Origin: an uncultured Methanosarcinales archaeon
GTDB lineage: Archaea > Nanobdellota > Nanobdellia > Woesearchaeales > GW2011-AR4
Assembly (NCBI GenBank): GCA_964607225.1
Contig: CAZSIU010000002.1
Coordinates: 1 to 55,115 of the forward strand
Reading direction: 5' to 3'
DNA length: 55,115 bases
Numbering within the stretch: the stretch's first letter is position 1; every line of letters begins with the position of its first letter. The translations under genes were made by a program, and so were the position numbers. The notes beneath the pieces were generated by a model. The model saw nothing but the letters and a program-made list of their open reading frames with translations. It did no database searches and was not told where the DNA came from. Of this stretch, positions 9,344 through 10,548 are shown piece after piece.

Positions 9344-10297
9344 GTGCTTAAATTGTTAAAAAACAAAAAAGGTGAGTTGAGCTTTATTGCATTACTTAGC
9401 TTACTTTTTAGTTCTGTACTGATTGTTAGCGCAATAGTCCTTAATTCTACAGATAACTCTAGTTTTAATGTAACTTTGAATGATACATTTCTTAATATTT
9501 CTATACCTAATGAATCAATTAATTTAAACCAATCAATAGAAAATATAACTACAATAAATGAGTCAATGCAAATTAATGAAAGTCTTAATTTAACAATTCC
9601 TATAGATAATGTAACAATACCAAACCAGCCAATAGTTATTAATGAAACAAAAAATTTAACTTTACCTATAGAAAATGTATTACCATCAGATACAACTCTT
9701 AATCTCCCAATAAATGACACATTAATTAATCAAACAAATATAACAATAACTAATCAAAGTATTAATCTAAGCGAAATCTCGATAAATACAACTTTATCAA
9801 ATCTCACAAATAATTCTATTGTAATAGAAAATCGAAGTAGTAATTTTACTGGTAATATATTAACGTTAGCAAAAGTATTCAACGAAGATAATTTAGATTT
9901 TGACAGAGAATTTAGGTTACGATATTTAAATGAGCATAAAAATTTCTCATATATAGACTTTAAAAGGTTAACTGGTAGAGATGAAGTGGTCTTTAGTGTA
10001 GGTGCAAAAAATGATAACATTAAAGGATTTAATGTTAATAATAAAAATTTTGTTATTGATTTATTAGGATGTAACAGCTATGAAAGGTATTGTATTTTTA
10101 GAATTAATGGAATTCCTACAAAAAAACTGCATAGCATAAAAGATTTTAGGAATACAAGGAAGAATTCTTTTGACCTTGATGAGTTATACATTATAAAAAT
10201 TAATTCAATTGAGTTTGATTTTTGTGATAATAAAAGATTTTGCCATTTAGGTTATGAAGGATATCATATTGTTAACGTTTCGATTGAGAGAAAATGA
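9344..10297 (+). CDS. Surface protein: pilin-like (class-III-like) N-terminus, sequon-saturated Asn-rich stalk, C-terminal globular domain
   Basis: N-terminus MLKLLKNKKG-ELSFIALLSLLFSSVLIVSAIVL is a basic stretch, then Gly, then a hydrophobic helix. There are 24 N-x-S/T sequons within residues 34-166 (nt 9443-9850). The start is either GTG 9344 or TTG 9353, downstream of ggaggtga/aagagg. Confidence 0.65.
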   Translation: MLKLLKNKKGELSFIALLSLLFSSVLIVSAIVLNSTDNSSFNVTLNDTFLNISIPNESINLNQSIENITTINESMQINESLNLTIPIDNVTIPNQPIVINETKNLTLPIENVLPSDTTLNLPINDTLINQTNITITNQSINLSEISINTTLSNLTNNSIVIENRSSNFTGNILTLAKVFNEDNLDFDREFRLRYLNEHKNFSYIDFKRLTGRDEVVFSVGAKNDNIKGFNVNNKNFVIDLLGCNSYERYCIFRINGIPTKKLHSIKDFRNTRKNSFDLDELYIIKINSIEFDFCDNKRFCHLGYEGYHIVNVSIERK

Positions 10298-10548
10298 AAA
10301 AAGAAAAGATAAAACTTATAGTTTGTAATCGAAGTGCTTATGCTTCTGTCTCTGTTGCCAATGTCGATAGTGACGACTATCCTGAAATTGTTGTTCCTTC
10401 TTTATATGGAATTGTTGTATTAGATTACAATCAAGCAAATGGAAAACTAGAAAAGAAATGCAACAACACAGACGGCAGACTTTGGGGTTCTGCAGTTATT
10501 AGTGATGTTGATAATTGTGATTTTGGAGGTGTTGGTTATGGGGTTTAG
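10294..10548 (+). CDS. Stand-alone single FG-GAP-like blade (84 aa), paralog of one blade of the 927-aa protein
   Basis: nt 10339-10512 versus 12502-12675: 53/58 aa identical but only about 77 percent nt identity (40 differences). 28 codons differ synonymously and 5 non-synonymously. ATGA overlap with the upstream gene. Confidence 0.55.
   Translation: MKKEKIKLIVCNRSAYASVSVANVDSDDYPEIVVPSLYGIVVLDYNQANGKLEKKCNNTDGRLWGSAVISDVDNCDFGGVGYGV

Follow-up and report, generated by a model that had tools for sequence, protein, structure and literature searches.

Disrupted β-propellers with blade-coding pieces in the flanking DNA have been described (Pereira & Lupas 2022, PMC9218822), and a review covers tandem gene duplicates that are only partial (truncated), along with what remains of them (PMC3449122). 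The pieces in these accounts are mostly recent, being either near-identical to the parent or interrupted by frameshifts or stops (PMC9218822, PMC3449122). Here we analyse an open reading frame (ORF) of 84 residues, located at 10294–10548 on the + strand of a 55,115-nucleotide (nt) stretch of archaeal DNA, contig CAZSIU010000002.1. This whole stretch is referred to as the window; coordinates are positions in it, and in comparisons between lineages the word stands for the window lineage. The ORF lies between two genes named here X and mem, and over 58 codons it repeats part of FL, the gene downstream of mem, which encodes a 927-residue secreted protein with a β-propeller. By origin, the ORF is very probably an in-frame remnant of a truncated paralogue of FL that stood upstream of it. 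As to its present status, we give an even chance to its being a tolerated, probably translated leftover, whose conservation is mostly inherited and was helped by rare gene conversion and by the constraints of the operon.

The ORF thus falls within a known kind, the partial-duplicate remnants beside repeat-protein genes. As in those cases, an internal piece of a repeat protein adjoins its parent, duplication is combined with deletion at a locus of high turnover, and relatives show the stages, from full paralogue through short form to fragments and broken pieces. Unlike them, the window piece is an intact ORF with a start codon, and it has kept 91% residue identity to its parent while the synonymous sites are saturated; this long preservation of residues amid synonymous saturation is what is unusual. 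If the remnant reading is true, the locus provides a clean staged example of duplication, truncation and in-frame whittling inside a coupled archaeal operon, and a low ratio of non-synonymous to synonymous divergence (dN/dS, or ω) between fragment and parent is by itself no proof that a fragment has a function.

Divergence of the repeat pair

The two members of the repeat pair, 10339–10512 in the ORF and 12502–12675 in FL, are 174 nt each, and all the counts given for them in the first-pass annotation of this sequence were reproduced. They differ at 40 positions (8, 4 and 28 at the first, second and third codon positions, respectively), and 53 of the 58 encoded residues are identical. Differences are synonymous only in 28 codons, two of them TCT/AGT serine switches at block codons 3 and 11, and change the residue in 5; an identical core of 26 nt remains at 10402–10427 and 12565–12590. 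The pair lies within the top direct repeat of the window, D1 (10325–10514 versus 12488–12677, 76%). The five fragment residues unlike those of the window FL (V, Y, V, K and S) are all present in other FL proteins, and the two products can be told apart by the peptides ...SAYASVSVANVDSDDYPEIVVPSLYGIVVLDYNQANGK in the fragment and ...SMANVDSDDNPEIIVP...NGR in FL.

Counting by the Nei–Gojobori method gives a proportion of synonymous differences (pS) of 0.75, which is saturated, and a dN of 0.09 (Fisher p = 2e-15). When 40 random substitutions were simulated 100,000 times, no run had five or fewer residue changes, the minimum being 17. Pairwise maximum likelihood (ML) under a codon model (GY94, F3x4, own script) gives ω = 0.016; both ω = 1 (2ΔlnL = 73.7) and ω = 0.5, the expectation with one copy drifting and the other constrained (2ΔlnL = 48.9), are rejected. 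The first-pass annotation had held that the ORF is not a decaying duplicate, a view that a dN/dS near 1 would have overturned; the formal value is not near 1, and the coding-type conservation on which the view rested is formally significant. Neutral evolution of the ORF fails on this ω and on a frame that is intact in seven lineages, decay being confined to L013 and to some tiny ORFs.

An identical ORF is present on four contigs from independent groundwater metagenome assemblies and is therefore not an assembly artefact. Three of these four loci were fetched and are 99.6–100% identical to the window in DNA, and no strain-level polymorphism was seen inside the fragment among the contigs compared. 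DPANN genomes often carry diversity-generating retroelements, and assemblies from metagenomes may be chimeric. A retroelement template repeat would show adenine-specific mismatches and lie near a reverse transcriptase; here, the mismatches are of all kinds, mostly C/T and T/A at third positions, and a scan of 18 proteins encoded nearby detected no reverse transcriptase. A recent foreign import was rejected as well, because the GC content at third codon positions of the fragment (0.22) equals the mean of the locus; no fragment-like DNA occurs in a different context in the other runs. An assembly chimera, a foreign import and a retroelement template are, taken together, exceedingly improbable. 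A recent copy from a gene like that for P0007, the FL protein of lineage L006, was also rejected, its DNA identity of 80.5% being the saturation level. A search with the 84-residue query missed full-length proteins, so that the absence of a closer donor from its results is uninformative.

Anatomy of the 84-residue ORF

The ATG of the ORF overlaps the TGA of X (ATGA), and three parts can be distinguished downstream of it. The first 15 codons (MKKEKIKLIVCNRSA, 10294–10338) would hold a deletion junction; the direct repeat reaches back to 10325. Their first ten residues match the N termini of memA, the upstream member of two small membrane-protein genes in relatives (MKKESIWRYV...), at 6 of 10 positions, and from this resemblance we infer that the start derives from memA. 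Codons 11–15 may be a degraded GNGGT motif. The second part is the blade copy of 58 codons (10339–10512), which corresponds to propeller repeat 4 and the first strand of repeat 5. Its counterpart in the resident FL (12502–12675) is repeat 4, residues 553–610, modelled with a confidence above 90; identity to P0007 is slightly higher, at 54 of 58 residues. The third part is a tail, NCDFGGVGYGV and stop (10513–10548), which holds both the Shine–Dalgarno sequence of mem (GGAGGTG, 10525–10531) and the mem ATG (10538). The 'FGG' of the tail is thus the GGAGGTG ribosome-binding site of mem read in another frame. The ORF is without a Shine–Dalgarno sequence of its own, its start being coupled to X by the ATGA overlap.

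Run on the 84-residue protein alone, Pfam finds no family. The protein appears alongside homologues that bear PF13517, and its FG-GAP nature follows from its homology to residues 553–610 of FL, which matches PF13517; the first-pass description of a single FG-GAP blade therefore stands by homology to FL and not by a family match of its own. The FG-GAP/VCBS motif is defined by a DxDxDG-type loop between the first two strands (PMC9218822). Read from the sequence, this cation-binding loop is VDSDDYPE in the ORF, against VDSDDNPE in FL. The fragment is one repeat and not a closed multi-blade toroid, and modelled alone as a monomer with AlphaFold2 it gives a low-confidence β-meander (predicted local distance difference test, pLDDT, 60.7).

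A secreted protein or lipoprotein was considered and rejected. The N terminus, MKKEKIKLIVC, has only three hydrophobic residues before the Cys and a Val at position −1, and fails both the lipobox [LVI][ASTVI][GAS]C and the hydrophobic-core signal peptide as given in the available text of PMC12462473. The ORF is accordingly without a signal peptide, as the first-pass annotation had it, and is probably read by ribosomes as a signal-less peptide, to judge from its sequence.

Fragments and short forms in relatives

Related loci were collected from homologues of the ORF together with the conserved C-terminal domain of X; lineages are given below by L numbers and proteins by P numbers. Homologues of the ORF are other small ORFs, of 86–132 residues. 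Seven lineages have an ORF derived from FL immediately between X and mem, 84 residues long in the window, 97 in L008/L009, 132 in L004/L018, 86 in L010 and 81 in L024; in L015 it is cut by the contig end, and in L013 it is decayed (48–63 residues, 25% of them novel). The order X–mem–FL without a fragment is found in L007 (as two tandem units), L019/L028, L021, L023, L026/L027 and L030, and unrelated genes follow X in L016, L017, L020, L022 and L031. Further small or broken pieces of 37–148 residues occur elsewhere, among them tiny or broken ORFs of 37–62 residues. On whether orthologous loci lack the ORF or carry it broken, which the first-pass annotation had set against its own view, the outcome is mixed: the ORF is intact in the seven lineages, several others lack it, and decayed or broken versions exist.

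Likely precursors are present in the same set of loci. In L028 the gene order is X (179 residues), memA (86), a short form of FL (576), memB (98), a full-length FL (922) and the PKD gene. P0045 (633 residues) and P0071 (605 residues) show the same short-form arrangement, the P0045 locus reading mem, short form (633) and mem. These short forms (576–633 residues) comprise a signal peptide, the phospholipase-C-like domain and propeller repeats 1–4, and their stops fall right at the ribosome-binding site of the small membrane-protein gene that follows. The junction after repeat 4, DVDNC[D/V]FGG, is common to the window ORF, L004 and the full short form P0045. Because short forms and fragments share it, the junction between repeat 4 and the mem ribosome-binding site appears to have been inherited from a truncated upstream paralogue. 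In line with such an origin, the homology of the window ORF to FL is limited to 10325/10339–10512, and short forms with the same junction exist in relatives.

At their 3′ ends, the short forms terminate at or near the window junction (FGG = GGAGGTG), with ...SAVISDVDNCVFGGVVL / ...DVDNCVFGGVVL before the stop in P0045 and ...DVDRDTKLIFGGYVL in P0071; the fragments end in ...SAVISDVDNCDFGGVGYGV / ...DVDNCDFGGVGYGV in the window and ...VIYDVDNCDFGGIYFEF / ...DVDNCDFGGIYFEF in L004. Here, 27 nt (GATGTTGATAATTGTGATTTTGGAGGT) are identical between the window (10495–10531) and L004 (1357–1393), the X genes of which are saturated in synonymous divergence (dS), and this identity suggests constraint at the nucleotide level on the translation-initiation region of mem. 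A second 3′ junction, ...VL[KD][FY] followed by (F)GG..., is common to P0054 and L005.

The 5′ ends join MKKEKIKLIVCNRSA to YASVS in the window, M[S/N]ETK to FNGGSAV in L008 and L024, MNNSIY to FNRNGG in L004, MRKINIHE to GTGTNQ in L010 and ...SRN to IYILDG in L015. In L005, 50 codons of memA are joined to GNGGAY, a clearer product of the same kind in which memA is fused to a blade. In all these cases the start codon of the fragment either overlaps the X stop or lies right against it, like that of memA in L028. Among the seven lineages, the 5′ boundaries are of at least five kinds and the 3′ boundaries of three. The overlap common to all fragments is only about 12–30 residues, around GNGGAYASVSVANVDSD, and the L024 and window fragments overlap by 12 residues.

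We propose that the ancestral operon was X–memA–short form–memB–FL–PKD, as it still is in some relatives. In the window lineage, an in-frame deletion would have fused the first 10–15 codons of memA to repeat 4 of the short form; deletions would have occurred independently in several lineages, with the loss of most of memA and of the N-terminal part of the short form. Because the start of memA would thereby be joined to the end of the short form, the remnant would have a translationally coupled start and end on the mem ribosome-binding site. Most of the conservation would have been gained while the segment belonged to a working paralogue. Later upkeep would have come from occasional short conversion from FL and from selection against disrupting the coupled operon, perhaps with some continuing constraint on the peptide.

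Explanations based on translation were also weighed. A programmed frameshift fusing the fragment to mem was rejected, because the relation of the two frames varies (+1 in the window, +2 in L008). For a frameshift fusion of X to the fragment, also considered, ATGA overlaps are generic in the operon and relatives do not keep the A AAA TGA context: the boundary reads G AAA TGA in L008 and is a 17-nt overlap in L013. A bridging ORF that serves to couple translation could explain an open frame but not a low dN, and it is weakened by the Shine–Dalgarno sequence that mem has of its own.

Inherited or current constraint

In DNA, the fragment, the window FL, the L006 FL (P0007) and the first FL of L007 are approximately equidistant, with 130–140 of the 174 nt identical, a saturation plateau; P0007 and the window FL are 73% identical overall. 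Blade residues are highly conserved between orthologues, 55 of 58 being identical between the window and L006 despite saturated dS, so a segment only recently out of a working gene would look exactly like the window fragment. Since fragment boundaries vary and several lineages lack the fragment or have it in decayed form, much of the low dN/dS could predate fragmentation.

Several observations weigh against a mere leftover, and the same observations argue for a selected mini-protein of remnant origin, one of a set of signal-less FG-GAP peptides with one or two repeats in which the sequence matters. We judge this alternative somewhat less likely than a tolerated leftover, and not far behind it. 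The window fragment has no private residue change over its 58 codons, and yet it is as distant in DNA from its own FL as orthologues of other species are (75–80%), at saturated dS. Because there are zero changes in about 136 non-synonymous sites, a functionless remnant must be very young, at less than about 0.02 substitutions per site of neutral time by our own estimate. These facts fit either a very recent deletion from a working short form or purifying selection on the fragment itself. No moderately diverged relative of the window lineage is present in the databases, where the best X homologues are at most 54–67% identical.

The lineages L008 and L024 share a 5′ junction that is not derived from FL, ATGA[G/A]TGAAACAAAA joined to TT[T/C]AATGG, so their fragments predate their split and were certainly already fragments during the divergence that followed. 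Their X genes have a dS of 1.4 (65% identity of X), the fragments are 85% identical, and ω between the fragments is 0.047 by ML and 0.11 by counting, with ω = 0.5 rejected. Compared with its own FL, the L008 fragment has a dS of 0.83 and an ω of 0.083, and ω = 0.5 is again rejected (2ΔlnL = 22). In a three-way comparison, the branch of the L008 fragment carries 7 private synonymous changes to 4 non-synonymous ones, and the FL branch 10 to 5. It follows from the L008 and L024 results that such remnants can stay constrained for a long time. In addition, mem has a strong Shine–Dalgarno sequence of its own, and an open bridging frame may be unneeded for downstream translation. A mini-protein also accords with an intact, ATGA-coupled ORF in seven lineages and with fragments that are 79–93% identical to particular FL lineages. 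The first-pass annotation took the ORF to be apparently maintained as a protein. The protein-like conservation, the homologues in seven lineages and the constraint in the sister pair bear this out in part, and maintenance itself is possible but unproven.

Other properties speak against a mini-protein. Fragment boundaries are variable and the fragments have little sequence in common, down to the 12 residues between L024 and the window; there is no signal peptide, though the domain, which has sequons and a cysteine, is of an extracellular type; AlphaFold2 models the lone fragment poorly; and many related loci have no fragment or, in some cases, a decayed or broken one. None of the RNA runs searched holds the locus.

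As to what a mini-protein might do, it could be a blade mimic that pairs before export with the strands of its cognate FL, in the manner of a microProtein or decoy, or a subunit of a small oligomeric propeller, with conversion keeping the match. MicroProteins, a eukaryotic concept, are small single-domain paralogues that regulate a larger parent protein. Like them, the 84-residue ORF stems from a partial duplication, retains only what could be an interaction module and follows its cognate large protein in sequence; unlike them, it would face a compartment mismatch, a cytoplasmic peptide against a Sec-exported target. We know of no application of the concept to surface proteins of archaea. Among oligomeric propellers, RSL is a natural two-blade lectin that forms a propeller. 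Engineered WD40 subunits of one to a few blades form oligomeric propellers (Afanasieva et al. 2019, PMC6805158), and stable assemblies have been obtained with pieces of one to six blades (PMC6805158). With the length of one blade and membership of a propeller family, the 84-residue peptide could in principle assemble with itself or with a partner in the same way. Unlike those subunits, it has a weak AlphaFold2 model and lacks a signal peptide where its parent is extracellular, and the fragments of the different lineages do not all represent one and the same blade.

A broader version of this alternative, rather doubtful in our judgement, is that the ORFs between X and mem form an undescribed family of free-standing FG-GAP mini-proteins in Woesearchaeota-like archaea, derived from a truncated paralogue, kept by purifying selection and rare conversion, and acting as blade mimics or propeller subunits. 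If a mini-protein is indeed encoded, selection would be acting on a propeller blade that stands free in nature, an intermediate assumed by models of propeller evolution and rarely observed, and possibly the first microprotein-like regulator of a DPANN surface protein.

Gene conversion between fragment and FL

Each fragment is nearest to one FL lineage and not to the other fragments. The window fragment matches P0007 best, one residue ahead of its own FL (54 against 53 of 58); the L008 fragment is nearest its own FL (76/86), L004 is nearest P0016 (89/113) and L010 is nearest P0020 (68/75). Because junctions are shared while each fragment is nearest a particular FL, some concerted evolution is required. 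Identical runs between fragment and FL exceed those in shuffles that preserve codon position, both for the 26 nt of the window (P = 0.014) and for 63 nt in L008 (P = 0.0002), and the same test on orthologue controls was not significant. The L006 orthologue has four differences within the 26-nt tract (10402–10427, equal to 12565–12590), which makes the core specific to the window pair; the tract is probably the product of a short gene conversion, judging from these patterns. The L008 fragment is a mosaic, with a 5′ part like its own FL and a 3′ part (EIVVAARYGIK) like the other paralogue type (L007 FL2, P0157 and P0172).

Conversion between fragment and FL is therefore real but rare. DNA identity is 77% and synonymous sites are saturated outside the 26-nt core, so fixed conversions must be about as rare as point substitutions. 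Nor can conversion alone give an ω far below 0.5, because it erases synonymous differences too.

Conversion has also been taken to give the ORF a role as an old donor cassette, one of the suggestions of the first-pass annotation. In this explanation, the fragment is silent and is kept coding because occasional conversion into FL varies or repairs repeat 4, through second-order selection. Known silent conversion cassettes include pilS of Neisseria and vls of Borrelia, and orphan toxin modules are known from Rhs and contact-dependent inhibition (CDI) loci. The likeness lies in a partial copy near an expressed copy and in the short conversion tracts, significant in two genomes and accompanied by the mosaic in L008; a mem gene beside each copy also recalls orphan-plus-immunity pairs. 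Unlike these systems, the fragment is a single internal copy with no variable segment, it is not a C-terminal tip and it has a coupled start codon of its own, and in place of a pilS- or vls-type array there is one copy in 55 kb. With five residue differences it offers almost no diversity to donate. Unlike exchange with a silent cassette, recombination with FL would delete the signal peptide and the enzyme domain and not swap a module. No recombinase lies nearby, and no hybrid joints between fragment and FL were found in the assembled contigs aligned to the region, which are contigs and not reads. At about one fixed conversion event per unit dS, we reckon that second-order selection for donation is negligible, the selection coefficient falling orders of magnitude under the drift limit. 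The conversion tracts thus stand, and the donor role itself is improbable given a single cassette, five differences and a conversion rate estimated to be far too low.

Operon and parent protein

The ORF belongs to a tightly packed + strand series composed of a 206-residue gene, a 504-residue gene, X, the 84-residue ORF, mem, FL and a gene for a PKD-domain protein, and the order X, mem, FL and PKD protein is conserved in relatives. GGAGGTG ribosome-binding sites precede the 504-residue gene, X and mem, whereas the ORF, FL and the PKD gene start by an ATGA overlap with the preceding stop. X (9344–10297, +, 317 residues) has an N-terminal membrane anchor, a linker rich in N-glycosylation sites and a conserved, Cys-containing C-terminal domain (...CDNKRFCHLGYEGYHIVNVSIERK), and matches no Pfam or NCBIfam family. 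The called gene mem (10538–10849, +) encodes a 103-residue membrane protein and its stop overlaps the start of FL (10846–13629, +). The PKD-domain protein (13626–15896, +, 756 residues) is the last of the ATGA-coupled series. Flanking genes encode glycosyltransferases and PMT-type enzymes. The window has 35% GC, its best-named homologues are from Candidatus Woesearchaeota and Nanoarchaeia (DPANN archaea), the organism being a DPANN archaeon of Woesearchaeota-like type, and scans of it with Rfam and for tRNAs gave no matches. PADLOC returned nothing, and NCBIfam returned one sub-threshold match, for FL.

FL begins with a signal peptide and a Zn-dependent phospholipase-C-like domain, after which come an eight-repeat FG-GAP/VCBS propeller (residues about 340–810) and an Ig-like domain. 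The protein matches PF13517 with E = 1.2e-14 (best stretch 506–571), and a profile of FL homologues matches phospholipase C structures, 1ah7 and 8cqm among others. Its AlphaFold model has a mean pLDDT of 81, exceeding 90 around repeat 4, and the structures that score highest against it by target TM-score are eight-bladed propellers, with Cake8 first (0.82). Because FL already has eight repeats, a further blade is superfluous for completing the propeller; the suggestion of the first-pass annotation that the ORF completes or caps it is not sustained, the best fold matches being closed eight-bladed propellers. Judged by its domains, FL is plausibly a host-membrane interaction factor of an episymbiotic archaeon. 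With an eight-bladed propeller between its phospholipase-C-like and Ig-like domains, and its gene in a fast-rearranging cassette, FL may matter for how episymbionts handle host membranes.

Variation between strains and runs was seen at several points in X and FL. Around 11851, inside FL, three runs have contigs that match the window exactly on the right and have a different sequence on the left (YRLFWDAVHI, of L007/L008 type), which suggests a recombination breakpoint at the boundary between enzyme domain and propeller among co-occurring relatives. In the C-terminal domain of X (10069–10207), L001 has 26 clustered mismatches at its contig end, followed by 6.3 kb of identity, which reflects mosaicism of X at strain level or else a chimeric end of the contig. 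In the linker of X (9610–9740), one contig of run X4 skips 129 nt, an in-frame length variant of 43 codons.

Other rearrangements at the locus

A second relic is present in the window itself. At 6754–6855, in the intergenic region upstream of the operon, 34 codons correspond to the last repeat of the PKD gene (15702–15803); 20 of the 34 residues are identical, and the segment is bounded by stops and has no start codon. It is a second leftover from a former copy of the cassette and is clearly non-coding.

Rearranged copies are also found in relatives. L023 (5561–6873) has three tandem mem genes and a 52-residue ORF that consists of the first FL codons and is coupled by ATGA at both ends; in L005 (46–1244), chimeras of FL and mem form an array; L021 (6774–8661) has an N-terminal half-copy of 519 residues, after which about 330 nt contain no mem gene; and L030 has two whole cassettes in tandem. 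Truncated paralogues were noted in both L021 and L030, and P0172 is a chimeric piece of 261 residues. Since such relics recur (L023, L021, L030, P0172, the tiny ORFs and the PKD relic of the window), these loci are generally unstable. Two of the lineages, L012 and L013 (CAZUSQ010000053.1 and CAYWNO010000010.1), are titled Methanosarcinales, and their gene families are otherwise those of Woesearchaeota and Nanoarchaeia, which may reflect mislabelling or contamination of metagenome-assembled genomes.

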